A stretch of DNA of 64,000 nucleotides from an uncultured Acidobacteriota bacterium (GCA_963836075.1 CAWIIB010000009.1:322437-386436); one strand, 5' to 3'. Shown: positions 36,252-64,000, counted from the first letter of the stretch. The notes: generated by a model from the letters alone, not told the origin. Numbers and translations are program-made.

Positions 36252-36256
36252 CCGGC

Positions 36257-39153: not shown

Positions 39154-39642
39154 TCAGTCGCTCTCCTTGTCCAGCTTTCGCAGTTCCTCGAGCAGCGCCA
39201 GCGGGCTGTACCTGGTGGCCTTGTCCAGCAGTGCCTGCACCCCCGCTGCTTTTTGTTCCTTGCGGGCGATGATGCGCTTGGCGTAGGCCTGCGACAGGAC
39301 GGAGATCAGTTCATCGAGCTCGCACGGCTTTTGCAGGTATTCGTAAGCCCCTTCACGCGTCATTTTTTTGGCCGAATCGAGAGAGCCGTGGCCGGTCAGG
39401 ACCACGACCTCCATGCGGGGATGCTGCTGCTTGATTCGCCGCAACAGTTCCTCGCCGTCCATTCCGGGCATCTTCAGGTCGATGAGCGCCACATCGAATT
39501 TCTGGTTCTGAGTCGCCTCCAGGGCATCTTCCCCCCGGGTGAATGGAAAAACCTCGATGTTCCGGACCTCGAGCCTCCTCGTTGTCGCGTTGAGAAATTT
39601 CTTCTCGTCGTCAACGAACAGCAACCGAATCTTTTCACTCAT
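39154..39642 (-). CDS. Single-domain response regulator (receiver only, with a short C-terminal coiled tail).
   Basis: LLFVDDE...DVALIDLKMPGMDG...VVVLTGHGS. Strong RBS AAGGAAGGAG. Confidence 0.75.
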   Translation of the reverse strand: MSEKIRLLFVDDEKKFLNATTRRLEVRNIEVFPFTRGEDALEATQNQKFDVALIDLKMPGMDGEELLRRIKQQHPRMEVVVLTGHGSLDSAKKMTREGAYEYLQKPCELDELISVLSQAYAKRIIARKEQKAAGVQALLDKATRYSPLALLEELRKLDKESD

Positions 39643-39675
39643 CGCACAACTCCTTCCTTTCAGTTTCCTCACGCT

Positions 39676-46664: not shown

Positions 46665-46878
46665 ACCACGACCGGTCCATTTTTCTCCGGGACCGGCGGG
46701 ATATTCCACTGTAGGCGATGGAAGATACCGATGATGATCGACGAGACCAAACCCGCGCCAGGAGAAAATGCATTAGCACCGTGAAACCGTTCCAGAGCCA
46801 GAGTGTCGGCGCTTCCCTCGCCTCCCCTGCACCGTGATAAAATGCCGGACAGACCAGTCAAAACAAGGGGGACCTGAC

Positions 46879-49446
46879 ATGATTCATTCGGTAAAGACCT
46901 TCCGGGTGCAGCCGGCACTCCCCGACCCGGTCAAGGGGCTGGTTGAGATCGCCTACAACCTGCACTGGACCTGGCGCAAGGAAACGGTGGAACTGTTCCG
47001 CCGCCTCGACCGGGAGGCGTGGGAGACGTCGGGGCACAACCCGGTGCTGATGCTGGGGACGATGGATCAGCAGCGGCTCGACCGGCTCCCCGAAGACAAT
47101 GGCTTCATGGCTCACCTGGAGCGGGTCCACACCTACCTGCAGGGCTACCTCGAGGCTGAAACCTGGTACGAAAAACAGCACGGCAAACCGGCTGCGCCGC
47201 TGGTCGCCTATTTCTCCATGGAGTTCGGCCTCACCGACTGCCTGCCGATCTACTCGGGGGGCCTGGGCATCCTGGCCGGCGATCACCTGAAATCGGCTTC
47301 CGAGCTCGGCGTGCCGCTGGCCGGGGTGGGGTTGATGTATCGCCAGGGCTACTTCCAGCAGTACCTCAACGAGGACGGCTGGCAGCAGGAGTTCTACCCG
47401 GACAACGACTTCTACAACCTTCCGGTGCGGCTGGAGACCGGGGCCGACGGCGCCCCGGTCACCGTGGCGGTGCCGCTGGCCGACCGGGAAGTACACTGCC
47501 GGATCTGGCGCGCCGACGTGGGCCGGGTCCCGCTCTACCTTCTCGACACCGGCTTTCCGGCCAACAGCCCCGCCGACCGCAAGATCACGCTCCAGCTCTA
47601 TGGCGGGGACCAGGAAGCAAGGATCCAGCAGGAGATCGTCCTCGGCATCGGCGGGATGCGCGCCCTGCGGCAGCTCGGCGTCTGCCCCACCGTCTGCCAC
47701 ATGAACGAGGGCCACTCCGGGTTTCTCGCCCTGGAAAGGATCCTGCACCGCCGGGAGACCCTGAAGCTGAGCAACTGGGAGGCGTCGGAGCTGACCGGAT
47801 GCGGCACGCTGTTCACCACCCACACCCCCGTCCCGGCGGGGATCGACGAGTTTCCCCGGGAGCTGATGACCCGCTACTTCAAGCGCTTCTTCCCCGAGGA
47901 CCCCGATACGCTGGAGAGCTTTCTCTCCTGGGGCCGGCTGCACCGGCGGGCCAACCCCGACGAGCCGTTCAACATGGCGATCATGGCTCTGCGCTTCGCC
48001 GACTTCGCCAACGGCGTCAGCCGGCTCCACGGCCGGGTTTCGCGTAAGATGTGGCAACTGCTCTGGCCCGGGGTCCCCGAGGAGGAGGTCCCCATCGACC
48101 ACGTGACCAACGGCGTGCACATCAACTCCTGGATCTCCTCCGACATGGCCGGGCTTTTCGACCGCTACCTCGGCCCGGACTGGGAGCAGAAACCGGCGGA
48201 CCAGGAGATCTGGGCCGGGGTGGACGGGATCCCCGACGAGGAGCTGTGGCGGACCCACGAACGCCGCAGGGAGCGGCTGGTGGCCTTCACCCGGCGGCGG
48301 CTGCGCGAGCAGCTCCAGCGGCGCGGCGCACCGGCCCCGGAGATCGAGGCCGCCGGCGGCGCCCTGAATCACGACGCGTTGACCATCGGCTTCGCCCGCC
48401 GCTTCGCCACCTACAAGCGGGCCACACTGCTCCTGGAAGACGAAGCGCGGCTCTCGGCGCTGCTGCGCGACGAGGAGCGGCCGCTGCAGATCATCTTCGC
48501 CGGGAAGGCGCACCCCCGGGACGATGAAGGGAAGAACCTCATCCGGCGGATCATCGCCTTCGCCCGCAAGGACGCGATCCGCCGCCGGGTGGTGTTTCTC
48601 GAAAACTACGACATGAACGTGGCCCGCTACCTGGTCCAGGGGGTCGATGTCTGGCTCAACACCCCCCGGCGCCCCCTGGAGGCCTCGGGAACCTCGGGGA
48701 TGAAGGTCTGCGCCAACGGCGGTCTGAACCTGAGCATCCTCGACGGCTGGTGGGACGAGGGCTACGCCCCCTCCCGCGGCTGGTCCATTGGCCTGGGCGA
48801 GGAGTACGACGAATGGAAACAGCAGGATGCCGTGGAGAGCCGGTCGCTGTTCCACATCCTGGAAAGCGAACTGCTGCCGCTGTTCTACGAGCGGGGCACC
48901 GACGGGCTCCCCCGGCGCTGGCTGGCCAAGGTCAAAGCATCGATGCGGGAGCTCTCCCCGGCGTTCAGCGCCAACCGGATGGTCCGCGAGTATACCGAGC
49001 GGTTCTACGTGCCGGCGCAGGAACGCTGGCGCCGGATGGAGGTGGACAACGCACAGCCGGCACGGGACTTCGCCGCCTGGCGGGTGAGGGTGACCAAGGC
49101 CTGGGACGGGGTCAGAGTGGCTGGGGTCCAGGTTGATACACCGACGGAGATCGCGGTTGGAACCGAGCTCCGGGTGACCGCCGAAGTGGAGTTGGGCCAA
49201 CTCACCCCCGCCGACGTGGCGGTGGAAATCTACACCGGAAGCGTCGACAGCGAAGAGCAGATCGGATCCGGGACTGCCGTCGCCATGGCGGACCAGGGAC
49301 AGGGGAAACCCGGAACCTGGGGCTATGCCGGGACCATCGCCTGCACCGACACCGGGCTGCGGGGGCTCTCGGTGCGGATCCTGCCGCACCACGAGATGAT
49401 GGCCGGCAAGCACGACCTGGGGCTGATCCGCTGGGCCGACGCCTGA
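46879..49446 (+). CDS. glgP: Alpha-glucan (glycogen) phosphorylase, DUF3417 + GT35 type.
   Basis: N-terminal DUF3417 (…LVEIAYNLHWTWRKETVELFRRLD…). …EFGLTDCLPIYSGGLGILAGDHLKSASELGVPL…. PLP site …GTSGMKVCANGGLNLSILDGWW…. Confidence 0.85.
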   Translation: MIHSVKTFRVQPALPDPVKGLVEIAYNLHWTWRKETVELFRRLDREAWETSGHNPVLMLGTMDQQRLDRLPEDNGFMAHLERVHTYLQGYLEAETWYEKQHGKPAAPLVAYFSMEFGLTDCLPIYSGGLGILAGDHLKSASELGVPLAGVGLMYRQGYFQQYLNEDGWQQEFYPDNDFYNLPVRLETGADGAPVTVAVPLADREVHCRIWRADVGRVPLYLLDTGFPANSPADRKITLQLYGGDQEARIQQEIVLGIGGMRALRQLGVCPTVCHMNEGHSGFLALERILHRRETLKLSNWEASELTGCGTLFTTHTPVPAGIDEFPRELMTRYFKRFFPEDPDTLESFLSWGRLHRRANPDEPFNMAIMALRFADFANGVSRLHGRVSRKMWQLLWPGVPEEEVPIDHVTNGVHINSWISSDMAGLFDRYLGPDWEQKPADQEIWAGVDGIPDEELWRTHERRRERLVAFTRRRLREQLQRRGAPAPEIEAAGGALNHDALTIGFARRFATYKRATLLLEDEARLSALLRDEERPLQIIFAGKAHPRDDEGKNLIRRIIAFARKDAIRRRVVFLENYDMNVARYLVQGVDVWLNTPRRPLEASGTSGMKVCANGGLNLSILDGWWDEGYAPSRGWSIGLGEEYDEWKQQDAVESRSLFHILESELLPLFYERGTDGLPRRWLAKVKASMRELSPAFSANRMVREYTERFYVPAQERWRRMEVDNAQPARDFAAWRVRVTKAWDGVRVAGVQVDTPTEIAVGTELRVTAEVELGQLTPADVAVEIYTGSVDSEEQIGSGTAVAMADQGQGKPGTWGYAGTIACTDTGLRGLSVRILPHHEMMAGKHDLGLIRWADA

Positions 49447-49670: not shown

Positions 49671-51224
49671 ATGATAAAATATGTGATGGGAATTCTGTTT
49701 CTCGCCTTGTTGCCCGTTTTCCCGCCGGCCCTGGCGGAAGATGTCCCGCCCCCGGCGGCCGGGGAAAGCGGCGACCTCCAGCTTCTGGAGGATGTCATCT
49801 ACCAGGACCAACAAGCCGTCGAGGCGCTGTCGCTCTACCCCCGGGAGGTTCGGGAGGCGATCTTCATCGTCGCGGCCAGCCCGGACGGCGTGGTGCGCGC
49901 CACCGGCATCCAGGCCCGGTCCAGCGCCAGCTTCGCCGGTCTGCTCTCCGATCTTTCCCAGGAGGAACAGAAGTCGTTCTGGGATCTCAGCCGCTACCCC
50001 GGCCTGATCGACCAGCTGGTGGCCGGCGGGGGGAAGTCGGCCGACGAGATCACCGCCATACTCGTCTCCTGGCCGAATGAGATCCGCGAGGCGGCGCGGT
50101 CATGTGCCGCCACCCATTTTTCCATCCTGGTCCAGGTTCGGCAGTTGAGGACCGCCGCCGAGCAGGCGTTCGATGCGGCCATCGCGGACTATCCAGCCGA
50201 GACCCGGGACGCCTACCGGATGCTGGTCGGCATGCCCGAGGTCTTCACCCTGCTCAACGAGAACATGTCGATGACCGTGCTGGTGGGAAGTCTCTACCGC
50301 CAGGACCCGGAGGCCCTGAAGGCCAGGATCGAGGAGCTGGGCCTGGAAGCGGCACGTAAGAACGCCGAGGCGCTGGAAGACTGGAAAAGGGAGCTGGCGG
50401 AAAACCCCGAGGCGCTCGAGGAACTGAAGGCCTCGGCCGAAGACTTTGCCGTGGAATACGGGGCCGATGCCGAAACCGTTTCCCAGCCGGTTTCCCAGAC
50501 CCGGGTCAACGTGGTCATCGAGCCCTACCCCTACTGGTACGGCTATCCCTACTGGTACCCGTATCCCTACTGGTATCCCTACCCCTACTGGTACTATTGG
50601 GGTTACTACTACGGCCCGGGCGACGCGATCGTCATCTGGGGCCCCCCGTCCTACTACTATACCTGGTGGTACTACCGCTATCCGTCTCACCACTACCGTT
50701 ATCCGCACCTCTCCGATTCGTTTCTCCGGCATCACCAGCGGCACCGGGATGTGAAGAACGGCTTCAACGACGTGGTGGGCCGGTGGAAATCGGACACCGG
50801 ACAGCGCATGGGCCCGGACTGGATGAAGGATGACGGACGCCGCGCCGAGCGTCTCAAGGAATACGGGCGGTTCGAGCGTGACTACAGCGCGGAATCCCGC
50901 GGCATCGCGGGGAGATCGATGTCCCGCAGCGACTACCTGAAGACCAACGGCGGCCGCTACCCGGACCTGCAGACACCGGCCGGCCAGGAGCGGCAGGGCC
51001 TCGGCAGCCGCCAACCCCCGACCGGGTTTCAGGGCGGGCCACCCGAAAGCAGGCTGGATACTCCGCCGCCTCCCCCCGGACCACCGGGGGATGGACGGGT
51101 GGTCATCACCAAGCCCAACGAGGCGCAGAAACTCAACGGGGCCAAGGACCATCACAAGAGCGGGTGGGACAGGAAACCCGGATCGAAACCACCGGCGAGC
51201 CCCCCGGCCGGCCGCCGGCGCTGA
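49671..51224 (+). CDS. Secreted protein with an extreme aromatic repeat (YPYWY)n and a Gly/Pro/Arg-rich tail. Possibly DUF3300-like.
   Basis: Signal peptide MIKYVMGILFLALLPVFPPALA. ...EPYPYWYGYPYWYPYPYWYPYPYWYYWGYYYGP...YYYTWWYYRYPSHHYRYP... The DUF3300 resemblance is from memory only. Confidence 0.55.
   Translation: MIKYVMGILFLALLPVFPPALAEDVPPPAAGESGDLQLLEDVIYQDQQAVEALSLYPREVREAIFIVAASPDGVVRATGIQARSSASFAGLLSDLSQEEQKSFWDLSRYPGLIDQLVAGGGKSADEITAILVSWPNEIREAARSCAATHFSILVQVRQLRTAAEQAFDAAIADYPAETRDAYRMLVGMPEVFTLLNENMSMTVLVGSLYRQDPEALKARIEELGLEAARKNAEALEDWKRELAENPEALEELKASAEDFAVEYGADAETVSQPVSQTRVNVVIEPYPYWYGYPYWYPYPYWYPYPYWYYWGYYYGPGDAIVIWGPPSYYYTWWYYRYPSHHYRYPHLSDSFLRHHQRHRDVKNGFNDVVGRWKSDTGQRMGPDWMKDDGRRAERLKEYGRFERDYSAESRGIAGRSMSRSDYLKTNGGRYPDLQTPAGQERQGLGSRQPPTGFQGGPPESRLDTPPPPPGPPGDGRVVITKPNEAQKLNGAKDHHKSGWDRKPGSKPPASPPAGRRR
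50524..50596 (+). repeat. In-frame tandem nucleotide repeat (15-18-nt units) encoding the YPYWY motif.
   Basis: tacccctactggtac / ggctatccctactggtac / ccgtatccctactggtat / ccctacccctactggtac, seen directly. Coding repeat, not CRISPR. Confidence 0.8.
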
Positions 51225-51261: not shown

Positions 51262-51849
51262 ATGAAAAAAACGATAGTGACTGCCGTAGCAGTGCTGGCG
51301 ATGATCAGCCTCGGCGCCTGCGCCACCCGCACGGTGCAGCGGGTGGACGAAACGCAGCAGGTCGATCTCAGCGGCCGCTGGAACGACACCGATTCACGGC
51401 TGGTGGCCGAGGAGATGATCAGCGACAGCCTCACCCGGGTCTGGATCACCGACTTTGCCGAGGCCAAGGGCAGAAAACCGACGGTGATCGTCGGCCTGGT
51501 GGGGAACAAGACCCACGAACTGATCAATACCGAAACCTTTACCAAGGACCTCGAGCGGGCTTTCATCAACTCGGGCAAGGTCAAGGTGGTCCAGGCCGCG
51601 GGCACCCGGGACGAACTGCGGGGCGAGCGGGCCGACCAGCAGAAATACGCATCCCCGGAAACGATGAAGAACTGGGGGCGGGAGAAGGGGGCCGACTTCA
51701 TGCTCCAGGGGACGGTGAACAGCATCGTCGACGAGTACAAGAAGGACAAGGTGGTCTACTACCAGGTCGACCTGGAGCTGTCCGACCTGGAATCCAACGA
51801 GAAGGTCTGGATCGGCGACAAGAAGATCAAGAAGCTGGTCAAGAACTGA
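51262..51849 (+). CDS. Lipoprotein, LpoB-like (penicillin-binding-protein activator family).
   Basis: Lipobox MISLGAC. Size and the ...KPTVIVGLVGNKT...FMLQGTVNSI... pattern are reminiscent of LpoB/TolB-N-like lipoproteins (from memory). Confidence 0.45.
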   Translation: MKKTIVTAVAVLAMISLGACATRTVQRVDETQQVDLSGRWNDTDSRLVAEEMISDSLTRVWITDFAEAKGRKPTVIVGLVGNKTHELINTETFTKDLERAFINSGKVKVVQAAGTRDELRGERADQQKYASPETMKNWGREKGADFMLQGTVNSIVDEYKKDKVVYYQVDLELSDLESNEKVWIGDKKIKKLVKN

Positions 51850-53359: not shown

Positions 53360-54679
53360 TCAAAATCCGTAGGCGATTCCCAGACCGAAATAGTCGACGG
53401 TCAGATTGTAGAACTGGCCGTGGGGCATGTGCCCGTCGTAGTATTCGAGCAGCAGCTCGATGGAGTGGGCGTCCGAATAGGGGCTGCGGAAGCGCAGCCC
53501 GGCCTTGAGGTTGAAATCGAGGTCCCAGTCCGTTTCCTCCCACACCTTGAAACCCATGCCGGCCACCACCCGCGCCGTGCGCCAGCCGATGGGCGAGCCG
53601 CGGAAGTCGACCCCCCATTGGTACTGCTGCCATCCCAGCGGCGTGTCCGAGTGAAAGATGCCGGTGCCGCCGCCATAGAACCGCAGAAAGCGGATCTCCC
53701 GCGATACGAGTAGTTCCGCCGCCTCGTAGCTGAGGTTGATCCGTTTCTCGATTTTTCCCGGCTGCGGGTAAAGCAGGTACTCGTCGCCAAGATGAGAGGA
53801 CTGGTGATACGCCCGGAGCCGAGCGGACCATTTTCCTTCCCGCCAGGACAGCGGGAACCCGACGATGAAATCCGAATTGATCAGGTCCATTGAAGGGGCG
53901 TCGAGGTTGAAGAGCGAAAACACCGCGCCACTGATGCCCAGCTGAATACCGTCCCCCTCTCTCCTCGCCGGCCGCCGCAGCAGGCCGAAATCCATTCCGA
54001 AGCCCACCGAGGCCATGTTGAAATAGCCGTATTCGCTGTCGTATCGCTGCCAGGTAGTGTGAAATCTCGGCTGCTTCTGGTCGGCCAGCGGCGGGAAGAA
54101 CAGGTGCCCGGAAGGGAAATGGACCGTCTTGCGATCCGGCGGCGTTTCGGCCCACTCGAGCCAGGACTGCCAGCGGCCCGTTCCCTGGGCAGGAGCGCTC
54201 TCCGCCTCCGGCAGCGGTTCCGGGGGCATGATTTCCAGCCTGTTCGTCACCTCGGCCACGCCGGCAAAGGAAATCACCGTCGCGACGAGCCGATCGGCAA
54301 GTTCAACGCTTGGGACAGCACCGGTGAGTGTGACCTCCCCATCGCGAACCGTGACCTCGACCTGCTCCGCATCGAGGCCGTGGGCGAAGAGGAGCCATCC
54401 CTCGATGAACCCGCGCAGGTGCTCGTCATCCGGTGACGGCTGAGCGTCGCTCATTTCGGCATCGGCGGGACCGGCGGCCAGGAGTGCCGGGAAGAAATAG
54501 ATAAGCACACAGGACAGTATGATGAGACCCAATAGCCGCACAAAGACCGACCCGGGAACCATGGCCCGGCCAAAGCAGGGGCCGCCGGTTAGCGGGGTGC
54601 ATGATGACAGGTTGTTCAGTGCGTCGAGCATCGGCACCGTCCACCGTTCAGGCCACGATTTGATCGGCGCTCTCGGCAC
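53360..54679 (-). CDS. BON-domain + DUF1207-type outer-membrane protein.
   Basis: BON-like segment VTLTGAVPSVELADRLVATVISFAGVAEVTNRLEI. C-terminal beta-rich region ending ...GLGIAYGF (typical OMP terminal aromatic). The start is uncertain (GTG 54679 or an internal ATG). Confidence 0.5.
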   Translation of the reverse strand: MPRAPIKSWPERWTVPMLDALNNLSSCTPLTGGPCFGRAMVPGSVFVRLLGLIILSCVLIYFFPALLAAGPADAEMSDAQPSPDDEHLRGFIEGWLLFAHGLDAEQVEVTVRDGEVTLTGAVPSVELADRLVATVISFAGVAEVTNRLEIMPPEPLPEAESAPAQGTGRWQSWLEWAETPPDRKTVHFPSGHLFFPPLADQKQPRFHTTWQRYDSEYGYFNMASVGFGMDFGLLRRPARREGDGIQLGISGAVFSLFNLDAPSMDLINSDFIVGFPLSWREGKWSARLRAYHQSSHLGDEYLLYPQPGKIEKRINLSYEAAELLVSREIRFLRFYGGGTGIFHSDTPLGWQQYQWGVDFRGSPIGWRTARVVAGMGFKVWEETDWDLDFNLKAGLRFRSPYSDAHSIELLLEYYDGHMPHGQFYNLTVDYFGLGIAYGF

Positions 54680-54714
54680 CGATCCTTTTGAGGTGCTTCC
54701 GGTCGGGCGGCCGG

Positions 54715-55598
54715 TCAGTTCCGGACCGGCAGTCGGACCCTGACCTGGTTTCCGGGGGGTGTGAATTCCAGCGTCAGTGTGGCGGTGGCCATCAGCACCC
54801 CTCGCCCGTGGGTGTCGAACATCCTGGATTTGTCCAGCTTCATGTACCGCCGGAAATCGAATCCGGGACCTTCATCCCTTATTTTCACCTCCAGCAGGCG
54901 GTCGCGGCGCCGGACATTGATTGAGACCTTTTTCCTGCTGAATTCCGCCTGGGCCAATCGCCTGCGCCGTTCCTCGGTCAGCTTGCCCTCGGCCAGCAGG
55001 CGCCCCTTGTCCTCGTAGCCGATCCCCAGGTTGCCGTGCTCGATGGCGTTGACCAGCAGCTCCAACAGTCCGACACAGGCATCCGGGGTGCCGGCGGCGG
55101 AAGCGAGATGGACGGCGAGCAGTTCGGCTTCCCGGATCGTTTTCACATGGAAGGTCCCCGCCTCGAGGAGCCGGAAGGCATCCTGCGTCTCCTCGACCTT
55201 CTCGGCGAGCTTCCGTTTCAGCTCCAGGCTCTGGACCGCGGCCCGAATAATGGCCTCCAACTGTGGTTCATCAAACGGTTTGGTCAGAAAGTAATAAGCG
55301 CCGAATTCGATGGCCTTCCTGATGTTCTCGGGGGCGAACTCCGCCGAGTGCACCACGATTTCCACATCAGCCAGCGCCGGCTGATCTTTCATCCAGCCCA
55401 GCAGTTCCATCCCGTCAGCATCGGGCAGGATCCAGTCCATCAGTACGGCGGCAATGTCCGGGCCCTGCCGCCCCACGATTTCCCGGACCTGCTTTCCCGT
55501 CGACGCCGTTTCAAACCGGTAGTCATCATCCTCGAGCATGGACCGCAGGAGGTCGCCTTCGACGGGTTCATCGTCCACGATGAGAATGGTCAGCACGG
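54715..55598 (-). CDS. Response-regulator receiver fused to a GHKL (HATPase, RsbW-like) domain.
   Basis: GTG start with GGAGG. ILIVDDEP...VLMDWILPDADG (REC). ...LLELLVNAIEHGN...IRDEGPGFD...GRGV (N, G1, G2 boxes). Confidence 0.6.
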
Positions 55599-56444
55599 CT
55601 CTTCCTCCTGGTCGGAGAAAATGATGACCGAATCGATCAGCCTGGCGTTGGGCACGCTCCAGGATCCGCCCTCGCCGGTAAACGTCGTCTCCACCGGGCC
55701 AACCTGTTTCACCCGGCCGCGCCGTCCTTCCACCTCGACCCCGGCGCCCACGATGAGACTGCGCCGGAGATAGTGGCCGGCCAGCAAGCCCCGCACGATA
55801 TCCCGCGAGCCGAAGGCGAAGGCCCACCCCATCCCGATGCTGGCCGAGACCACGATCGCCGTGAAGACCATAATGAGGATCTGCGTGTCGATACCCAGCT
55901 GTTCGAGAGCCACGACGCCCACCATGATAACAATCATAATCTTGGCGGTCGTGCCCAACTGTTTGGCAAAGACCAGGTTGGCCGTGGCCGCGCCGGAAGC
56001 GACGAGATTACCGGCGAACTGGGCCAGCAGGACGCCGATGACGATCACCAGCACCGCACCGATCACGCTGGGCAGGAACTGGATCAGACGGTCGATGGTC
56101 ACGGTCACCGCGGATAGACCGAGGATCTCGGCCGCGGAAAGGAGAAAGGTCAGCATCAGGGTCCAGAAGAGGAGGCGCCCGATGATCGCCGAGGGAGTTT
56201 TATCGATGCCGGCGGTGTGGAGCATTTCCCTGATCCCGATCCGCTCCGAAACACGGTCAAATCCGAAACGGTCGAGCAGGCCCCGCGCCGCCGACTCCAC
56301 CAGCCTGGAAACGCCCCAGCCGGCGACGAGGACGAACACGGTCCCGAAAACACTGGGCAGGAAGGCGGCAACGGTGCTGCCGAGTTCGGAGAGCCAGGAG
56401 ATCAGGATTGTCTGCCAGGCGCTGAAGTTCAGCAGTTCATTCAT
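55590..56444 (-). CDS. MscS-like small channel with conserved-TM-helix (PF05552-type) repeats and a degenerate beta-domain.
   Basis: Repeated ...LPSVIGAVLVIVIGVLLA.. helices. C-terminal ...GAGVEVEGRRGRVKQVGPVETTF...SVPNARLIDSVI. Confidence 0.55.
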   Translation of the reverse strand: MNELLNFSAWQTILISWLSELGSTVAAFLPSVFGTVFVLVAGWGVSRLVESAARGLLDRFGFDRVSERIGIREMLHTAGIDKTPSAIIGRLLFWTLMLTFLLSAAEILGLSAVTVTIDRLIQFLPSVIGAVLVIVIGVLLAQFAGNLVASGAATANLVFAKQLGTTAKIMIVIMVGVVALEQLGIDTQILIMVFTAIVVSASIGMGWAFAFGSRDIVRGLLAGHYLRRSLIVGAGVEVEGRRGRVKQVGPVETTFTGEGGSWSVPNARLIDSVIIFSDQEEEPC

Positions 56445-56676
56445 GGTTCTCCTCCTCGATTACAAAAACACCACTGTAGAACAGGCCAAGGAGCGGTACG
56501 CAGCAACCCAGGACGAAAACCGATGAAAAGAATTCGAGAAGATCCCTCCCGGTGACCTCTGCATGGACACGTGCCATCGTCTGCCTGTAGAGGTCGGGAC
56601 GGGGAGCGGGTATGTGGTCATCGAGCCTGGAGAAAAATCTTCCGGCCTCTTCCTCGAGAACTGCTTTCTCGTCCAT
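56437..56676 (-). CDS. Putative anti-sigma factor (small, C-terminal single TM).
   Basis: 80 aa, starts 16 nt after the ECF sigma stop. C-terminal hydrophobic segment FFSSVFVLGCCVPLLGLFYSGVFV. Confidence 0.45.
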   Translation of the reverse strand: MDEKAVLEEEAGRFFSRLDDHIPAPRPDLYRQTMARVHAEVTGRDLLEFFSSVFVLGCCVPLLGLFYSGVFVIEEENHE

Positions 56677-56692
56677 TTCGTCTCCACTCCTT

Positions 56693-57289
56693 TCAGTCCG
56701 CTGGTTCCTCATCATCGAGCGCCGGGGCCGCTGTGCCGGGCCCGCCGGCGGCATGTTGCCGCAGCTGCTCGACGGCCCGCACCACCCGCATTTTCACTGC
56801 CGACTCCTTCATCCCCAGAACGTCGGCTATTTCGGCGTATCCCCACCCTTCGGAAAAACGCATCACCACCGCCACCCGTGTCTCGGGTGCAAGAACGTCC
56901 ATCATCTTTTCCAGCGTCAAGCGATCCTCGTTGTTCGACTCCCGGTTGCCGGCCCAACGGCCGCCCTGGTCCTCGAATGCGCCCCGGCGGCGCTGCTCCT
57001 GGTGACGGCGCCGCAGAACAAGCCGGCAGGCATTGATCACGATCGTATTCAGCCAATGCTCAAACGGCTTCTCGAAACGGAAGCGGGGAAGTGAGCGAAA
57101 GACGCTGAGGAAGCTGTCCTGGACCACGTCCTCGGCGTCCTCCCTGGTGCGCAGGATCCGGTAGGCCCGGCGGTAGACCCGGGCCTGGTGCCGCGTAACC
57201 AGGGCGTCGAAGGCAGCGGTGGCGTAGGGCAACTCCTTCTGCGCCCGTTCGACGAGTGCCCGATCAGCATCTGTGGTGTGATCGCTCAC
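56693..57289 (-). CDS. ECF-type RNA polymerase sigma factor (sigma-70 regions 2 and 4).
   Basis: ...AFDALVTRHQARVYRRAYRILRTREDAEDVVQDSFLSVFRSL... (region 2). ...RVAVVMRFSEGWGYAEIADVLGMKESAVKMRVVRA (region 4 HTH). Confidence 0.75.
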   Translation of the reverse strand: MSDHTTDADRALVERAQKELPYATAAFDALVTRHQARVYRRAYRILRTREDAEDVVQDSFLSVFRSLPRFRFEKPFEHWLNTIVINACRLVLRRRHQEQRRRGAFEDQGGRWAGNRESNNEDRLTLEKMMDVLAPETRVAVVMRFSEGWGYAEIADVLGMKESAVKMRVVRAVEQLRQHAAGGPGTAAPALDDEEPAD

Positions 57290-57432
57290 GTCTCTCCGCG
57301 GGTTTCCCTCCGCCGAGCGGCCGTTAAAGTTGTCATCCACTACAGTAAAAGCAGGCCAGGGCGGAAAACGTCACATAACACCGGACTTCGCGTCGCGGCC
57401 TTGAACCGAAGCACGCCGCCATTGGACAACCT

Positions 57433-57514
57433 GAAAACAAATTCCACTCCCGGGGTTACTTTCTTGTCCGGTCCGTCATTAGTCAGGTGAGGGAAGCATG
57501 CCGGATAGCGGCTG
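57433..57514 (+). promoter_or_regulatory. Copy A of the approximately 80-nt conserved element, in the divergent region between the ECF sigma operon and the OMP gene.
   Basis: TGAAAACAAATTCC..CGGGGTTACTTTCTTGTCC..TCCGTCATTAGTCAGG.TGAGGGAAG..AGCGGCTG. More than 75% identical to 49516-49599 over about 80 nt. Confidence 0.4.
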
Positions 57515-57671
57515 CGCACCCGTGGATTAAAACATGCAGACAAAAGCACAGTCAAACGTGGGATCCGCCTGTGAAGAGGTGATCACCGGTGATCCCAGTC
57601 AAGGAGCGTTCTGCTCCGACCGGTAGTGGTGAACTGCACGCAATGCGACCTGGAGTCGCAAAAAAGGAGAA

Positions 57672-59285
57672 TTGCTGATGAAGAGCAACACGAATCGGAC
57701 CAAGCGGTATCTCAATTTAGCGACCACCCTGGTCCTACTGCTCCTGTTCCCGGGTATGACCCCGGTGCTGCAGGCAGGGGAGGACTCGGATTTCTACAAA
57801 TGGACCGCACCCTCGGTGGAGGATCAGCTGGCCGCCGACCAGACCCCCGTCCCGACAGATGCGGGCGCGATTTTCGTCCCGGCGATGACCGACGGGAACG
57901 ATGAGCCCCTGGTTCTCGTGTTCCAGAACGAGCAGAAAGTGGCTTCGGGCAAGACCGGGGCGAGGATTATCGTCAGCCCCGGCGCCTGCGACATCCGTGT
58001 GGGCTCAGGTGCGGTTAAGCAGATGATGACCTATGGGGTCGAAGTGGCCGCAGGCGAAACAACCGTCGTGGACTGCACCTGGGGCGGCCTGAAGGTCAGT
58101 GTCGTTGACGAGAACAACATCCCCCATCGGGGTACATACGAGGTCATCCGCGCGGAGGGCCGGGAGCTCTTCGGCATCGGCTACGGCGCCGACACCCTGC
58201 AGGCCGAGCCGCTGGGCACCTGGCTGCTCGGTCCCGGCCTCTACCGCATCGTCCGCACCGGTGAGACCTACCGGGCCAGAGAGGATTTCGCCACCGTGGT
58301 TCTCCCCGAGGGCGGGCTGGTCCACTTCAAACTGGTCATCAACCCCGACACCGGCGAATTTCGTGGCGCCGGCGTGGCCCTGCCTGACGAACTGGGAATC
58401 GTGGATGAGGCGGTGAGCAACTGGGCCAAATCGATGACCCTCGGCGTGGCGGCGTCCCTCAGCGACTCGTCCGATGTGGTCGGATCTCCGAACCAGTCCA
58501 GCTACTCGGGAGTCGGATACTTCGACACCTATCTGACCTACAAGAACGGACCCCATTTCGGATCCGCCATCCTGGAACTGGAGGAGGGTTTCCTGAGGGT
58601 CGACCCGGAAACCAGCGAGTCCCTGCCGACGCAGAAAACCCAGGACCGGTTGCGTGCCGACCTCCTCTACACCTGGTTTGTCAAGGAGTGGGTCGGCCCC
58701 TATGCTCGCGCCGGGTTACTGACCAACATCTTTCCCTCGGAAACCCTGACCACCGAGGACCAGTTCATCGCTTACAACCGGCTTGACGGTACCAGAGACG
58801 TTATCTTCGTTCCGGCGAACAACAACTACCGGACGTCGGACAGCTTCGGCAACCTGCGGTTCCGCGAGGGTGTGGGCGCCAACTTCCGCCTCTTCAGAAA
58901 CCAGCACGTCACCCTGAACTGGCGGCTCGGCGTCGGACTGAGACAAAACGTGTTCAACGGCCTGTATGTCAACGAGGACGATGCGGCAACCGAAGAGATC
59001 GACCTCTACCAGGTGGACAGCTTCAACCAGGAGGGTCTCGAGACCACCATCACCGGGAACGTGCGGATCACCCGGTATCTCTCGTATATCACCGACCTGG
59101 AAGTGTTCGCCGATTTCTCCGACATGGGCGAGCCGACCGTTGACTGGCGTAACAATCTCAGCCTGCGCCTGACGCGGTATCTGTCGCTGGACTACGTGCT
59201 CGACATTCTCAGGTTCCCGCAGGTTGTGGACCAGACCCAGACGAGCCAGAGCCTGCTGCTGCGGTTCTCGTTCGACATTATCTAA
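57672..59285 (+). CDS. Secreted beta-rich protein, probably an outer-membrane beta-barrel, unknown function.
   Basis: Signal peptide ...TLVLLLLFPGMTPVLQAG. Alternating hydrophobic patterns. C-terminal ...LLLRFSFDII. Confidence 0.5.
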   Translation: MLMKSNTNRTKRYLNLATTLVLLLLFPGMTPVLQAGEDSDFYKWTAPSVEDQLAADQTPVPTDAGAIFVPAMTDGNDEPLVLVFQNEQKVASGKTGARIIVSPGACDIRVGSGAVKQMMTYGVEVAAGETTVVDCTWGGLKVSVVDENNIPHRGTYEVIRAEGRELFGIGYGADTLQAEPLGTWLLGPGLYRIVRTGETYRAREDFATVVLPEGGLVHFKLVINPDTGEFRGAGVALPDELGIVDEAVSNWAKSMTLGVAASLSDSSDVVGSPNQSSYSGVGYFDTYLTYKNGPHFGSAILELEEGFLRVDPETSESLPTQKTQDRLRADLLYTWFVKEWVGPYARAGLLTNIFPSETLTTEDQFIAYNRLDGTRDVIFVPANNNYRTSDSFGNLRFREGVGANFRLFRNQHVTLNWRLGVGLRQNVFNGLYVNEDDAATEEIDLYQVDSFNQEGLETTITGNVRITRYLSYITDLEVFADFSDMGEPTVDWRNNLSLRLTRYLSLDYVLDILRFPQVVDQTQTSQSLLLRFSFDII

Positions 59286-59400
59286 GCCGATGGCTGATGA
59301 CTGCCGGTCGGCGGAGCGGCAACGCTTCCCGTCCGGCGGCTCGGTCGGCCGGTTGTGACCGGGTGCAGCCGGGATGATTACTGATAAGGGGGAAAAAATC

Positions 59401-60879
59401 ATGAATGAAATTATCAATCTGCTGAAAGAATCGGTTGGCGGATACCTTCCGCAACTGCTCGGCGCCGTGGCCATTCTGGTCGTCGGCTGGCTGATGGCCC
59501 TGGTCATTGCCGGGGCGATCCGTGGGTTAGTAAGGCGCACCGGGATAGACGACAAACTGGTCACCTGGTTTGGCGAGGAAAAATCGGGCGGCAAGGCGCC
59601 GGATTTCGCCGTCGGCATCGGCCGGGGCGTGTTCTGGTTGATCATGATCCTGGTATTGACTGCCGTCCTGCAGGTCCTCGACCTGACCCTGACCACGGCC
59701 CCGCTGAACAATTTCCTGTCCCAGGTTTTCCAGTTCCTGCCCCAGCTCGTGGGGGCGGCCGTGCTGGCCCTCATCGCCTGGATCACCGCGGTCACCCTGC
59801 GGCTGCTGCTGAGCAAGGCGCTGAAGGCGGCAAAGGTGGATGAAAAAATCTGGCGCCAGCTGAGCGACGGGGAACCGTCCGGGCAGGTGTCGCGGACCAT
59901 CGCCGATGCCGCGTACTGGCTGGTGCTGCTGCTCTTCCTGCCGGCCGTGCTGGGTGCCCTGAAGTTGCAGGGCCTTCTCCAGCCGGTGCAGGGCATGATG
60001 AACAGGATTCTCGGCTTTCTGCCGAACCTGCTCGCCGCCGCCCTGATCGCCCTGGTCGGCTGGTTCGTGGCCCGCCTGGTCCGGCGGATTGTGGAAAACC
60101 TGGCGGGAACGGCCGGCGGGGATCGGCTCGGTCAACAGATCGGACTGCCGCAGCTGTCCCGGATCATCGGCCTGGTGGTCTACATCCTGATCCTCGTTCC
60201 GGTGCTCATCGCCGCACTCAACGCCCTGGCGCTGGAGGCGGTCACCCGGCCGGCCAGCCTGATGCTGACCAAGATCCTCGCCGCCTTCCCGTCCATCTTT
60301 GCCGCCGCGGTGGTCGTCCTGATCGCCTACGCGGTGGGGCGGCTGGTTTCCGGACTGGTCACCGAACTGCTCACCGGCATCGGGTTCAATACCATCCTGG
60401 TCCGGCTGGGCATCGGCCGGGAACCGGAGGAGGGTCGGCGTACGCCGTCCGAGATCGTCGGCTACCTGGCACTGGTGGCGATCATGCTCTTTGGCGCTCT
60501 CGAAGCCTCCGGTCTGCTGGGCTTCGAAGTCCTCTCGGACCTGACGACCGATGCCACCGTGTTCGGCGGGCACATTCTCGTGGGGCTGGTTATTTTCGGG
60601 ATCGGTCTCTACCTGGCCAACCTGGCCGCTGAGGCCATCCAGTCCAGCGGTGTGGCGCAGTCCCGTCTTCTCTCCGTCACCGCCCGTATGGCCATCCTGG
60701 TCCTGGCCGGCGCCATGTCGCTGCGGCACATGGGCCTGGCCGACGAGATTGTCAGTCTGGCCTTTGCCCTGATCGTCGGCGCCGTGGCGGTGGCCGCAGC
60801 TGTGGCCTTCGGCATCGGCGGCCGGGACCTTGCCGCGAAGAAGCTGGCCCAGTGGTTCAAGGAAAAACCATCGGTTTGA
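59401..60879 (+). CDS. Membrane protein with four conserved-TM-helix (MscS-associated PF05552-like) repeats, no beta-domain.
   Basis: Four repeats of ...LP.L.GA...L..GW..A....R (e.g. LPQLLGAVAILVVGWLMALVIAGAIRGLV; LPQLVGAAVLALIAWITAVTLRLLL; LPNLLAAALIALVGWFVARLVRRIV). Confidence 0.5.
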   Translation: MNEIINLLKESVGGYLPQLLGAVAILVVGWLMALVIAGAIRGLVRRTGIDDKLVTWFGEEKSGGKAPDFAVGIGRGVFWLIMILVLTAVLQVLDLTLTTAPLNNFLSQVFQFLPQLVGAAVLALIAWITAVTLRLLLSKALKAAKVDEKIWRQLSDGEPSGQVSRTIADAAYWLVLLLFLPAVLGALKLQGLLQPVQGMMNRILGFLPNLLAAALIALVGWFVARLVRRIVENLAGTAGGDRLGQQIGLPQLSRIIGLVVYILILVPVLIAALNALALEAVTRPASLMLTKILAAFPSIFAAAVVVLIAYAVGRLVSGLVTELLTGIGFNTILVRLGIGREPEEGRRTPSEIVGYLALVAIMLFGALEASGLLGFEVLSDLTTDATVFGGHILVGLVIFGIGLYLANLAAEAIQSSGVAQSRLLSVTARMAILVLAGAMSLRHMGLADEIVSLAFALIVGAVAVAAAVAFGIGGRDLAAKKLAQWFKEKPSV

Positions 60880-61017
60880 ACCGGTAGCGACGGGCGGGAT
60901 CCTCAGGAATGCCGAGGCTCCCGCCCCGAAGCGCCAATCACCACAGAGCCCGGGTTCAACCGATTAACCCGCGGTGCAGTATCGCCGCATAGATGGAGTA
61001 TCGAAAGGTAGCAAAAA

Positions 61018-62063
61018 TGAAAATCGGATTCGTCGTCAACGACATTATGACCGAACAAAGCGGGTACACCACCAGCCGGCTGGCAGTGGCCGCGATCAAC
61101 ATGGGCCACGAATCGTGGGTCATCGGGGTGGGCGACCTGGCCTACGACCCGGACGAGAACATCCGCGCCCGGGCCACCGGCGTGCCGAAGAAAAAGTACC
61201 AGAACAGCGTGGCCTACCTCAAGGACCTGCAGGGGAAAAACGCGGTGAAAGAGCGGATCACCGTCGACGACCTCGACGTGCTGATGCTGCGCAACGATCC
61301 CTCAAACGATGCGGTGAACCGGCCCTGGGCCACCTCCGCCGGGATCCTCTTCGGCCGGCTGGCCATGCGCCACGGGGTGATCGTGGTCAACGACCCCAAC
61401 GGCCTGTCCAAGGCCGAGAGCAAGATGTATTTCCAGATGTTCCCCGAGGAGGTGCGGCCGCAGACCCTGATCACCCGCGACCGCTCGGAGATCAAGGCTT
61501 TCGCCAAAGACCAGGGCGGGACCATCGTGCTCAAGCCGCTGCAGGGCTCGGGCGGGCAGAGCGTCTTCCTCATCCGGCCGGACGACGTGCCGAACATGAA
61601 CCAGATGATCGACGCGGTGAGCCGCGACGGCTACGTCATCGCCCAGGCCTACCTGCCGGCGGCGGAACAGGGTGACATGCGGCTCTTCCTGATGAACGGC
61701 CAGCCGCTGCGCGAGAAGGGAAAATACGCCGCCTTCCGCCGGGTGCGCACCGGGGGCGACATGCGCTCGAACATCCACGCCGGTGGCAAGCTGGCCGCGG
61801 CGGTGGTGGACGAAGAAGCGCTGCGCATCGTCGAGATCGTGCGGCCGAAGATCGTCCAGGACGGGATGTTCCTGGTGGGCCTGGACATCGTCGGTGACAA
61901 GCTGATGGAGATCAACGTCTTCAGCCCCGGCGGGCTGGGCAGCGCGCAGAAGTTCACCGGGGTCAACTTCAGCCGTACGGTGATCAGGGCCCTGGAGCGC
62001 AAGGTGCAGTACATGGAGTTCTACCGCCGCAACTTCGACAACGCGGAAATGGCCACTTTGTAA
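61018..62063 (+). CDS. Stand-alone GshB-type ATP-grasp ligase (glutathione-synthetase family). Paralog of the C-terminal domain of the 16768-19722 fusion.
   Basis: About 94% aa identity to the fusion's ATP-grasp domain. RBS GAAAGG upstream of the ATG. GshB C-terminal motifs ...MRLFLMNGQPL...GGDMRSNIHAGG...GLDIVGDKLMEINVFSPGG. Confidence 0.75.
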
Positions 62064-62342
62064 GCTGCACCGGCTGCATCTTGCCGAAACAAAGTGCTAA
62101 TCTGCTTGCGCGCCTGCGGACCGATTGACAGGCAGGTTATTATTTACGGAGCAGACAAGCAATATATTATGACAAAAAACTTACACTCCCGGCAGCTGAA
62201 CGCAATCCGGAATCCGGTTTGAATGTACCCGTCGGGACCCTGGCTTCGCGGACGAGCGGACCAGACCGCTCTGTGTGCCGCACTTCCCAGGCCTGCCGGC
62301 CAGGAAGAAGGGTGGGGTGCAGACCGCTAACGGAGGTGTCCG

Positions 62343-63170
62343 ATGGAATTTGAAAACTGGAGCTCGGCCCTGAAGAACATGGCGGAACAGCTCTGGAACG
62401 GCTTTCTGGCATACCTGCCGCAATTGGCCCTCGTCATCGTATTGCTGCTGGCCGGGTGGGCCCTGGGCCGGCTGGCCCGCAGGCTGGTCAGCAGGCTCAT
62501 TCTGCGTCACGCCCGCGGCCGAAAAGGGCCCGCCATGGAGCAGGCGCTGCAAGAATCCGGGGTGGACCGGATGGCCGCCGAGATTTTCGGGCGGATCGCT
62601 TTCTGGTTCGTGCTGATCTTCTTCGCCGCCCTGGCCGGAGAAGTTCTCGGACTGGCCGTGGTTTCCCGTGGTCTCGCCGTGCTGATCCTCTACCTGCCAC
62701 GCGTACTGGCCGCGGGGCTGATCGCCTTCGCCGGTCTGCTGATGAGCAACCTGGCCCGGGACGCGGTGATGACGCTGAGCAGTTCGAACCGTTTCAGTGG
62801 GAAGGTTCCGGCACAACTGGTCCGCTACGCCATCCTGCTGCTCACCACCGTCGTGGCCCTGGATCAGATCGGGATCGACAGCACGCTGCTGATCCTGGCC
62901 ACGGGAATCGTGCTTGCCGCGCTGCTGGGCAGCGCGACGCTCGCCGTCGGTCTCGGCGCGCGGACCGAGGTGGGCAATATCATCGCCCTGCACTATCTGG
63001 CCAAGTCCTATTCGGTGGGCCAGCGAATCCGGATCGGGGATGTGGAAGGCCGCATCGTGGAGCTCGGCACCACCGGAGTGGTCCTGGACACCGCACAGGG
63101 ACGGACAACCATCCCCGGCAAGGAATTCAGCACGCGCAGCTCCTGTCTGCTCGACGAGACGGCGCCATGA
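62343..63170 (+). CDS. MscS-like small channel (paralog of 55590-56444).
   Basis: TM-helix repeats plus C-terminal ...GQRIRIGDVEGRIVELGTTGVVLDTAQGRTTIPGKEF (MscS beta-domain-like). Confidence 0.55.
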   Translation: MEFENWSSALKNMAEQLWNGFLAYLPQLALVIVLLLAGWALGRLARRLVSRLILRHARGRKGPAMEQALQESGVDRMAAEIFGRIAFWFVLIFFAALAGEVLGLAVVSRGLAVLILYLPRVLAAGLIAFAGLLMSNLARDAVMTLSSSNRFSGKVPAQLVRYAILLLTTVVALDQIGIDSTLLILATGIVLAALLGSATLAVGLGARTEVGNIIALHYLAKSYSVGQRIRIGDVEGRIVELGTTGVVLDTAQGRTTIPGKEFSTRSSCLLDETAP

Positions 63171-64000
63171 AAATCGAAAACACCTTGTCGAATCTCTACC
63201 TGGAGAGCCATCCGGATGACGCGGCGCGGGCCCTGGAAGGCCTTCCGCTGGAGCAGGCTGCCGCACTTCTCGAGACCGCACCGGCCGCAGCCGCCTCAAA
63301 GGCGCTGGATCGGATGGAACCGGCAAGGTCGGTGGAACTGCTGAAGCTGTTTTCCACGGCTCGTGTCGGTGAAATTCTCGAGATTCTGCCCCCCGAATCG
63401 GCGGTTCAGCTGATGCTCAGGCTGGAGCCGGAGGAGCGCGAGCTGCTGCTCGGCAGCGCGTCGGAAGCCACGGCCGACCGGCTGCGGCGACTGCTCACCT
63501 ATCCCGAAGACAGTGCCGGCCGGCTGATGGATCCGCGGGTGATGGCTTTTCCCGAGGATCTCGAGGTCGCCGAGGCGGTGCGCCGGCTCCGCCGCCACAA
63601 TCACCAGCTTCGCTACTACCTCTACGTTACCGACCCGGAGCACAGGCTGATCGGCGTGCTCTCCCTGCGTGAACTGATGGCCGCTCCGCCGGACGAACGC
63701 CTGGCGCCACGGTTTCGCCGGCCGGTGACCCGGCTCAGCGTCAGGGATACCCGCTCGACAGTCCTGCAGCACCCCGGGTGGTTGAAGTACCATGCGCTCC
63801 CGGTGACCGGCGGTTCAGGGATCCTGGTCGGCGTCTTGCGCTACAAGACCTTACGGAAGCTGGAAGGCGAAACAGCAACCACACGGCCTTCCGATCTCAT
63901 CGGATTGGGGTCGGCGCTGGGCGAAGCCTGGGTCGGCATATCCGGACTGCTGTTCGACGGGTTTGCCGGATCCCTGCACGGGAGCCGCGAATTCAGGGCC
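63167..64000 (+). CDS. mgtE: Magnesium transporter MgtE (N-terminal MgtE_N + CBS domains present; the C-terminal membrane part lies beyond the window).
   Basis: ATGA overlap with the upstream gene. ...AALLETAPAAAASKALDRMEPARSVELLKLFSTARVGEILEILPPESAVQLMLRLEPEER... is MgtE_N-like. ...HRLIGVLSLRELMAA... is CBS. Confidence 0.7.
   Translation, partial: MKIENTLSNLYLESHPDDAARALEGLPLEQAAALLETAPAAAASKALDRMEPARSVELLKLFSTARVGEILEILPPESAVQLMLRLEPEERELLLGSASEATADRLRRLLTYPEDSAGRLMDPRVMAFPEDLEVAEAVRRLRRHNHQLRYYLYVTDPEHRLIGVLSLRELMAAPPDERLAPRFRRPVTRLSVRDTRSTVLQHPGWLKYHALPVTGGSGILVGVLRYKTLRKLEGETATTRPSDLIGLGSALGEAWVGISGLLFDGFAGSLHGSREFRA

Follow-up and report, generated by a model that had tools for sequence, protein, structure and literature searches.

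Is a mechanosensitive channel homologue that is encoded in the operon of a sigma factor also involved in controlling that sigma factor? This question is raised by five genes at positions 53360-57289 of a 64,000-nt stretch of DNA from an uncultured Acidobacteriota bacterium (GCA_963836075.1, CAWIIB010000009.1:322437-386436; the whole stretch is referred to here as the window). The five genes encode, in order, an extracytoplasmic function (ECF) sigma factor, a small membrane protein, a channel homologue related to MscS, a protein with a receiver (REC) domain fused to a GHKL-type ATPase domain (REC-GHKL), and a predicted outer-membrane protein (OMP) with BON and DUF1207 domains (BON-DUF1207). The results presented below show that the first three genes form a conserved unit, and we consider it likely that this trio represents, in Acidobacteriota, the membrane/envelope stress module known as SigX-CfrX-CmpX (ECF102-type). 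The two other genes appear to be lineage-specific additions.

Organization of the five genes

The following open reading frames (ORFs) and features were identified by ORF calling and direct reading of the nucleotide sequence:

56693-57289, minus strand: ECF sigma factor, SigX-like; GTG start, with an alternative GTG at 57340; Sigma70_r2 (4.5e-16) and Sigma70_r4_2 (2.7e-13)
56437-56676, minus strand: 79-aa tail-anchored membrane protein, CfrX-like putative anti-sigma factor; ATG start
55590-56444, minus strand: CmpX-like MscS-family membrane protein, 284 aa; PF05552 (MS_channel_1st_1) in two stretches (1.2e-17)
54715-55596, minus strand: REC-GHKL, LvrC-like response regulator whose output domain has a Bergerat (RsbW-like) fold; Response_reg (2.8e-22) and HATPase_c_2 (2.3e-07)
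53360-54631, minus strand (alternative GTG start at 54679): BON-DUF1207, predicted outer-membrane protein; BON (2.3e-11) and DUF1207 (6.4e-63)
57290-57671: intergenic region between the sigma gene and a divergent OMP gene; presumed promoter region

All five ORFs are on the minus strand and tightly packed. A preliminary reading made from the sequence only had described the same five consecutive genes, and Pfam backs the domains it named; for the 79-aa ORF, Pfam and NCBIfam scans gave no match. A 16-nt spacer separates the stop codon of the sigma gene from the ATG of the small ORF, which is preceded by an AGGAG ribosome-binding site. The small ORF overlaps the channel gene by 8 nt (ATGAATGA), and the channel gene overlaps the REC-GHKL gene by 7 nt (GTGCTGA), with AGGAGG upstream. 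The first two spacings are as given in the sequence-only reading, which had put the last overlap at 9 nt. It had also recognized the BON gene, at a distance of 36 nt; the start of this gene is uncertain, and the gap is 35 nt with the GTG at 54679 or 83 nt with the ATG at 54631, the latter being the start that matches the alignment with an 81%-identical relative. The start of the sigma gene at 57289 agrees with the N-termini of the sigma factors of relatives in an alignment, and with the GTG as start, REC-GHKL has 293 aa and is identical to database protein P0001. Inspection of the operon sequence did not reveal a convincing intrinsic terminator between the five genes, and no sigma-70-type promoter was found in the 57290-57671 region.

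The trio resembles SigX, CfrX and CmpX

The sigma factor has an ECF architecture consisting of regions 2 and 4 only, as indicated by Sigma70_r2, Sigma70_r4_2 and Sigma70_ECF matches, and it exceeds the cut-off of TIGR02937 (91.8 bits versus 42.9). Its top NCBIfam model is the SigX model NF007222, with 105.8 bits. For comparison, the scores with this model are 316.2 for Pseudomonas SigX, 116.5 for the sigma factor of locus L034 and 102.3 for that of L007, and both L034 and L007 have the synteny described below. Aligned with SigX of Pseudomonas saudimassiliensis, which is encoded beside the CmpX protein P0349, the window sigma is 33% identical over 172 aa (E 3e-26). In addition, an N-terminal motif, ELP[YH]xTxA[FY], is common to the window sigma and all channel-linked sigma factors and is missing in two unlinked control ECFs; the identities to the window sigma are 30-47% for the former and 24-27% for the latter. 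By the NCBI equivalog criterion, the window sigma is best described as SigX-like rather than as a SigX orthologue.

The 79-aa protein is predicted to have an N-terminus of about 45 cytoplasmic residues, then a single hydrophobic helix and a tail of six residues, leaving essentially no periplasmic part. Homologues are encoded at the equivalent position in L004, L007-L009, L015, L017 and L022. When a profile of the window and Myxococcota small proteins was compared by hhalign with a profile of the gammaproteobacterial, Gemmatimonadota and Pseudomonas proteins encoded at the cfrX position, they matched with a probability of 83.6% (E 8.2e-6, 44 columns). In all small proteins compared, a single hydrophobic helix comes after the motif R[VA]H..[IV]..RDLL..F. 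Because these proteins are short, the alignments give moderate support for a CfrX-type protein next to the sigma factor. The 83-84-aa ORFs upstream of two REC-GHKL homologues (L003 and L122) were also considered as CfrX relatives and were discarded as a CBS-like fragment and a probable non-gene.

The only Pfam family detected in the 284-aa protein is the PF05552 "conserved TM helix" (transmembrane, TM) repeat. It scores 71.9 bits with the NF033912 msc model, for which the cut-off is 100 bits. NCBIfam MscS models cover residues 126-280, matching the N-terminal part of MscS, and residues 123-275 align to residues 11-157 of 9sdb, a 171-aa heptameric small-conductance MscS channel (E 1.7e-5); the protein also aligns by sequence to 4hw9 (MscS TM3 and beta domain). 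In the AlphaFold model (pLDDT 78.9), long helices lead into a small beta domain, after which the chain terminates, and a Foldseek search with this model returned only MscS-family structures at E<1e-3, including all of the top 40 (best E about 1e-6). The pore-lining TM3 and the beta domain of MscS are both recognizable, and the MS_channel_3rd (alpha/beta vestibule) domain is absent, the protein ending about ten residues past the beta domain, like 9sdb. On the basis of these alignments and the model, the 284-aa protein is predicted to be related to MscS, having TM1-3 and the beta domain plus two extra helices at the N-terminus, and lacking the vestibule; its channel activity is a prediction. The MscS-like channel of the sequence-only reading is thus an MscS relative as proposed, without the C-terminal vestibule domain of a full MscS. 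It is collinear with Pseudomonas P0349 ("CmpX protein") and 32% identical to it over 264 aa (E 3e-36), and the two agree in length class and in their Pfam and NCBIfam profiles, so that a CmpX-type mechanosensitive channel homologue lies in the same gene cluster as the SigX-like gene.

Judged by sequence, then, the window sigma, the 79-aa protein and the channel are homologous to Pseudomonas SigX, CfrX and CmpX.

The trio is conserved in distant phyla

A scan with an alignment of the channel homologues, using one genome per species, yielded 34 CmpX-like loci. An ECF sigma gene adjoins the channel homologue in 10 of these 34 independent genome loci, belonging to several phyla, and two further loci at contig ends retain only the CfrX-like ORF. 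The combination of sigma factor, small protein and channel is found in about 12 of the 34 loci, in Myxococcota, Gemmatimonadota and Gammaproteobacteria, and this linkage of channel and ECF sigma is far above chance. When the stop-to-stop ORFs of these GC-rich loci were clustered all against all, shadow frames contaminated the result; one ORF cluster (c2), for instance, turned out to be MgtE read in a wrong frame and was discarded.

The closest locus is in an Acidobacteriota metagenome-assembled genome (MAG; channel 80% identical), which has the small gene, the channel gene, REC-GHKL and BON-DUF1207 before the contig stops short of the sigma gene. In the Myxococcota MAG loci L007, L008, L009, L015 and L017 (channel about 50% identical), the sigma gene is followed by a gene of about 82 codons and the channel gene; L036, from a Gemmatimonadota MAG, and L019, from Gammaproteobacteria, have the three genes in this order as well. 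In gammaproteobacterial L029, L034 and L035, the channel gene directly precedes the sigma gene; the Azotimanducaceae locus L034 consists of a 78-aa gene, a cmpX-like gene, the sigma gene and a gene for an OmpA-family OMP. A search seeded with the L034 channel led to Pseudomonas CmpX (273-274-aa proteins including P0349), and the order at the Pseudomonas locus L123 is rraA, an 84-aa gene, cmpX, sigX, oprF. Thus, the sigma gene has oprF beside it in L123, and a gene for an OmpA-like OMP in L034. REC-GHKL and BON-DUF1207 are both absent from the Myxococcota, Gemmatimonadota and gammaproteobacterial modules.

Sigma factor, small membrane protein and channel therefore constitute a conserved, translationally coupled unit. 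Because the trio is conserved across phyla and translationally coupled, the functional tie of the channel to the sigma factor, as put forward in the sequence-only reading, is well founded. As a check, that reading had named the five-gene synteny in relatives: the trio is kept far beyond close relatives, and the five-gene set extends no further than one 84%-identical MAG.

A gene for the Mg2+ transporter MgtE is present within 7 kb of the CmpX-like gene in 26 of the 34 loci, as an immediate neighbour in most of them, whether or not a sigma gene is present. The linked genes (L006-L039, e.g., L010, 4678-6859) are an MgtE_N/CBS gene and a full-length mgtE, and in Pseudomonas the CorA-like cmaX occupies the equivalent place. 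One Myxococcota MAG contig (CAVROS010000003.1) has three CmpX-like loci in a stretch of about 90 kb (L007, L009 and L010), two with a sigma and a CfrX-like gene and one with MgtE; the cassette has therefore been duplicated.

Relation to the published SigX system

SigX of P. aeruginosa is the sole ECF102 member described and is encoded together with the channel CmpX, with CfrX, a putative anti-sigma factor, and with OprF; in the 2021 reclassification of ECFs, a mechanosensitive channel is conserved in ECF102 subgroups s1, s2 and s5 (PMC7826278). Bouffartigues et al. reported that cfrX-cmpX is a SigX-dependent unit and that SigX is responsive to alteration of the membrane (PMC7641640). According to the literature, CmpX affects a hybrid sensor kinase. 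The sequence-only reading had regarded membrane tension as an undescribed input to an ECF sigma. This claim of novelty fails, because the linkage of a mechanosensitive channel and an ECF sigma is the published SigX/ECF102 case (PMC7826278, PMC7641640), and a mechanosensing input is already a published hypothesis. What is new here is the sigma-first order in Acidobacteriota, the replacement of OprF by BON-DUF1207, and the coupling of an LvrC-like putative anti-sigma gene to the channel gene.

Several observations weigh against assigning the trio to the SigX-CfrX-CmpX type. The score of the window sigma (105.8 bits) does not reach the equivalog cut-off of NF007222 (194 bits) and barely exceeds those with SigM (101.6) and other ECF models, so sequence alone does not firmly place it in a group. 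The CfrX match is short and of low identity, and for the 84-aa CfrX of Pseudomonas itself, anti-sigma function has not been demonstrated (PMC7641640). OprF, the OmpA-family porin next to the sigma gene in subgroup s1, is absent: Pfam and NCBIfam scans detected no OprF/OmpA domain in the downstream OMP of the window. No shared ECF-type promoter or motif was recognized upstream of the sigma genes of the window and its relatives. Finally, REC-GHKL and BON-DUF1207 accompany the module in just one other, closely related MAG, and for this reason the case for their integration into it is one of gene overlap and spacing. We nevertheless hold the ECF102-type module to be the likely identity of the trio.

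The REC-GHKL and BON-DUF1207 proteins

The REC-GHKL family is large (1172 matches in a database search). The phospho-acceptor D54 and K106 are invariant in 20 homologues, and the N, G1 and G2 boxes are conserved. A profile of the family matches PDB entry 9qih over its full length (residues 4-288, E 8e-23), the C-terminal half alone matches it with E 1.7e-5, and 9qih is also the top Foldseek match of the AlphaFold model (pLDDT 84; E 1.9e-14). This entry is the response regulator LvrC from Leptospira according to its title; its molecule name, "SenB", leads to unrelated papers on selenoneine and was disregarded. The window protein accordingly has a receiver domain with the Asp and Lys residues and an output domain of the Bergerat fold homologous to that of LvrC. 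LvrC was described in 2026 as a Rec domain joined to an RsbW/SpoIIAB-like Bergerat-fold domain that is phosphorylated by LvrB; it is a Rec-regulated putative anti-sigma factor proposed to sequester a sigma factor, whose identity was not established (PMC13269768). By analogy, the partner-switching role suggested for REC-GHKL in the sequence-only reading would have a precedent in LvrC.

In none of 80 metagenome loci with REC-GHKL homologues (32-49% identity) was a window-like ECF sigma, CmpX-like or BON-DUF1207 gene found within 7 kb. The sole neighbour cluster present in more than five of these 80 loci consists of other receiver-domain proteins, and the ten immediately adjacent ones that were scanned are seven sensor histidine kinases and three PP2C phosphatases (REC-PAS-PP2C or HDOD-PP2C). 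A nearer clade (55-64% identity) lies among ion-homeostasis genes, with the following neighbours:

L120/L121: cmpX-like, mgtE_N, mgtE, REC-GHKL and GGDEF genes, plus an MscS gene
L001: the same arrangement as L120/L121
L002/L003: two CNNM genes
contig of P0012: CNNM, a Na/Ca exchanger, MscS and a REC gene
L122: SLC12 and RimK
L124: MscL, SLC12 and a Na/Ca exchanger
L125: CdaA, 16 nt upstream

None of eight near-clade loci, from seven proteins, has an adjacent sigma gene; a single ECF gene was seen, at a distance of 8 kb in L001, and it does not have the group motif. REC-GHKL is found in a sigma-type operon only in the window and one 84%-identical MAG. Since its near-clade neighbours and the window share the same gene families, the REC-GHKL protein belongs to an osmotic/ionic homeostasis island, with a recurrent tie to CmpX/MscS-type genes, and its placement in a sigma operon is lineage-specific. 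In L125, from a marine contig (5828-7882), the homologue begins 16 nt past the gene for a CdaA diadenylate cyclase; this hints that the clade is linked to c-di-AMP signalling, and the window also encodes a CdaA.

Both domains of the BON-DUF1207 protein exceed the Pfam gathering scores (BON 44.3 bits, threshold 27; DUF1207 213.3 bits, threshold 22). The protein has a hydrophobic N-terminal segment and ends in ...AYGF, its BON part is weakly similar to Kbp, YraP and OsmY, and an 81%-identical orthologue is encoded at the same position in the Acidobacteriota MAG. In the literature searched, DUF1207 appears only as a predicted chlamydial beta-barrel OMP. BON-DUF1207 holds the post-operon position that OprF/OmpA-like genes have in Gammaproteobacteria, though it is unrelated to them.

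These contexts raise the possibility that the two genes are passengers, that is, homeostasis and envelope genes that landed behind a SigX-type module in an osmoregulation island and share its transcript without a role in sigma control. The near clade of REC-GHKL is always found among transport genes (MgtE, CNNM, SLC12 and CdaA contexts), its usual home, a cmpX-like gene followed by mgtE, is present in the window from 62343 onward, the whole window is rich in ion/osmotic homeostasis genes, and both genes are missing from the modules of the other phyla. However, REC-GHKL shares 7 nt with the channel gene, which implies that their expression is coupled, the arrangement is retained in the 84%-identical MAG, and the recurrent pairing of REC-GHKL with CmpX-like/MscS genes suggests a real link to the channel, which is itself sigma-linked. 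We therefore regard two mere passengers as possible but somewhat unlikely.

Proposed mechanism and alternatives

In the mechanism that we propose for the SigX-type module, which follows the published SigX model, the 79-aa protein would hold the sigma factor at the inner membrane via its cytoplasmic N-terminus of about 45 residues. Because this protein has essentially no periplasmic part, the signal would come from within the membrane, and tension, fluidity or ionic state would likely be sensed by the adjacent CmpX-like channel. Once released, the sigma factor would transcribe its own operon and envelope genes. The two lineage-specific genes, encoding the LvrC-like protein and BON-DUF1207, would be co-transcribed with the trio. 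The LvrC-like protein would most likely tie the module to a phosphorelay for ion/osmotic homeostasis, and may act on the channel/transport side or, as a minority view, as a second, cytoplasmic anti-sigma factor; BON-DUF1207 is probably a member of the regulon or an envelope partner.

Alternatively, the CmpX-like protein could be an osmotic safety valve under the control of the sigma factor, a regulon member rather than a sensor that feeds it. It has the TM1-3 and beta domain of MscS, as in the 171-aa heptameric channel, and cfrX-cmpX is a target of SigX in Pseudomonas (PMC7641640). Moreover, the MgtE-linked CmpX-like genes (26 of 34 loci) often lack a sigma gene, and a sigma-independent role of CmpX-like proteins follows from this. 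On the other hand, the small putative anti-sigma factor lacks a periplasmic domain and yet is translationally coupled to the channel in every lineage examined. Transcription of sigX is also reportedly lowered in a cmpX mutant. A valve that is only an output of the sigma factor is thus unlikely.

It is very unlikely that REC-GHKL is the main, phosphorylation-controlled anti-sigma factor, working in a manner resembling partner switching, with the small protein and the channel as accessories. Its gene does overlap the channel gene by 7 nt within a sigma operon, its receiver and ATP-binding residues are intact, and a dCache histidine kinase with a single-domain REC protein is encoded 15 kb away. 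Yet the 80 metagenome loci and the eight near-clade loci described above, none of which pairs REC-GHKL with such a sigma gene, argue against it, as does the failure to match STAS or PP2C domains among the window ORFs scanned, and sigma binding by LvrC is itself a proposal. RsbW-type anti-sigma factors bind group-3 sigma factors and are not known to bind ECFs. A related idea is that the LvrC-like protein is a second, phosphorylation-controlled anti-sigma factor, so that the sigma factor would integrate a membrane signal (CfrX-like/CmpX-like) and a two-component signal. We hold this to be highly improbable; if true, the LvrC family would have its first class of sigma partners, and this would be the first RsbW-type anti-sigma factor acting on an ECF. 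A classical RsbW/RsbV/PP2C system at this locus was rejected because its partners are lacking: no STAS antagonist and no SpoIIE/PP2C protein was found in the operon or among the 40 window ORFs scanned, a few small ORFs being outside the scan.

For the SigX-type module, the retention and translational coupling of the trio in Acidobacteriota, Myxococcota, Gemmatimonadota and Gammaproteobacteria, despite shuffled gene order, provides independent support, from comparison, for a joint action of the sigma factor with the small protein and the channel. The relatives of the trio offer simpler orthologous sets for studying control of SigX, for which the role of CmpX in Pseudomonas is inferred. The strong linkage of CmpX-like genes and MgtE suggests that the module is tied to Mg2+/ionic homeostasis and not to turgor alone. 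In addition, the LvrC-like protein encoded in the same operon makes this sigma factor a concrete candidate partner for the LvrC family.

Genes in the rest of the window

Most of the window (14412-49446 and 59374-64000) reads as an ion/osmotic homeostasis island containing the same families that surround the 55-64%-identical REC-GHKL homologues. The genes of interest there and, at 57672-59285, beside the operon are:

14412-16730: CitMHS transporter with four TrkA_C domains
16768-19722: MATCAP + GshB-type ATP-grasp fusion
23398-24891: CdaA diadenylate cyclase
37377-41703, minus strand: dCache-HisKA-HATPase kinase at 37377-39086, single-domain receiver protein, and receiver fused to a Na_sulph_symp/CitMHS transporter
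42059-43108: CNNM-CBS protein
43111-44352: TerC
44451-46664: SLC12
46834-49446: phosphorylase
57672-59285, plus strand: 537-aa predicted beta-barrel OMP, divergent from the sigma gene; weak OMP_b-brl and DUF481 matches
59374-60879, plus strand: "msc" protein, 501 aa; PF05552 in four stretches (2.3e-54); NF033912 337 bits, above the cut-off of 100
62343-63170, plus strand: second CmpX-like protein, 275 aa; PF05552 (1.4e-12)
63167 to the window end, plus strand: MgtE_N/CBS gene, its start overlapped by the second CmpX-like gene; MgtE_N (6.2e-16) and CBS

A role of the 537-aa OMP in the system would be inferred from its position alone. The right part of the island (59374-64000) comprises the four-repeat msc protein, a GshB-like ATP-grasp protein, the second CmpX-like gene and MgtE_N, and the order cmpX-like then mgtE found from 62343 onward also precedes the REC-GHKL homologue in L120/L121. 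The dCache histidine kinase, 15 kb from the REC-GHKL gene, is a candidate phosphodonor for the REC-GHKL protein, and the receiver-transporter fusion encoded beside it is unusual.

Other regions are of a different nature. A 517-aa ORF (49671-51224, plus strand) contains an aromatic repeat (PYPYWYGYPYWYPYPYWYPYPYWYYWGYYYG), has no Pfam or NCBIfam match and lies directly upstream of genes for an LpoB homologue (51262-51849) and a TPR-like lipoprotein. A 785-aa ORF (34838-37195, plus strand) has no Pfam match and a third-position GC content of 0.53, against about 0.85 in its neighbours; its DNA may be of foreign origin, or the ORF may not be a genuine gene. The 24983-33800 region is unrelated to the operon and contains the hydrogenase maturation genes for HypF, a HypE-like AIRS protein and a HypB-like cobW protein, as well as genes for NuoF/NuoG-like iron-sulfur flavoproteins.

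Comparison with known systems

Like RsbW of the RsbW-RsbV-RsbU system, the GHKL domain of the window protein is of the HATPase_c_2 type, and some of its distant homologues adjoin REC-PAS-PP2C or HDOD-PP2C proteins. The window system differs in that the input is through a fused receiver, the neighbouring sigma factor is an ECF instead of a group-3 sigma factor, and STAS and PP2C domains are absent from the ORFs scanned. The window protein also resembles LvrC of Leptospira interrogans (9qih): both proteins consist of a receiver followed by an RsbW/SpoIIAB-like Bergerat-fold domain, are of similar length (293 aa in the window, 304 aa in LvrC) and contain the motif NA[IV]EHG..GI.YE.K, at an overall identity of about 21-22%. 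The kinase that phosphorylates LvrC is LvrB, which is Rec-controlled, whereas the window REC-GHKL gene has no kinase gene beside it; conversely, this gene is part of an ECF sigma operon, while for LvrC a sigma target is proposed.

The channel homologue shares TM1-TM3 and the beta domain with E. coli MscS (2oau) and the 171-aa MscS (9sdb). It differs from both in having two additional N-terminal helices, which correspond to the first PF05552 repeat, and from E. coli MscS in lacking the vestibule and the C-terminal barrel; in contrast to these structures, its channel activity is predicted only.

The system most similar to that of the window is the cmaX-cfrX-cmpX-sigX-oprF cluster of P. aeruginosa. 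An ECF sigma factor, a protein of about 80 aa and a PF05552/MscS-like protein of about 275 aa are encoded in both, and all three are homologous by sequence comparison. The order is sigma, small gene, channel in the window and small gene, channel, sigma in P. aeruginosa, and the outer-membrane protein is BON-DUF1207 in the former and OprF/OmpA in the latter. Unlike P. aeruginosa, the window has an LvrC-like gene for a REC and Bergerat-fold protein between the channel and OMP genes, its sigma factor is below the SigX equivalog cut-off, and its phylum is Acidobacteriota. Nevertheless, in both clusters the small gene lies beside the channel gene in the same orientation, a gene for an outer-membrane protein comes next, and an Mg2+ transporter is encoded nearby: CorA-like CmaX in P. 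aeruginosa, and MgtE and CNNM in the window.

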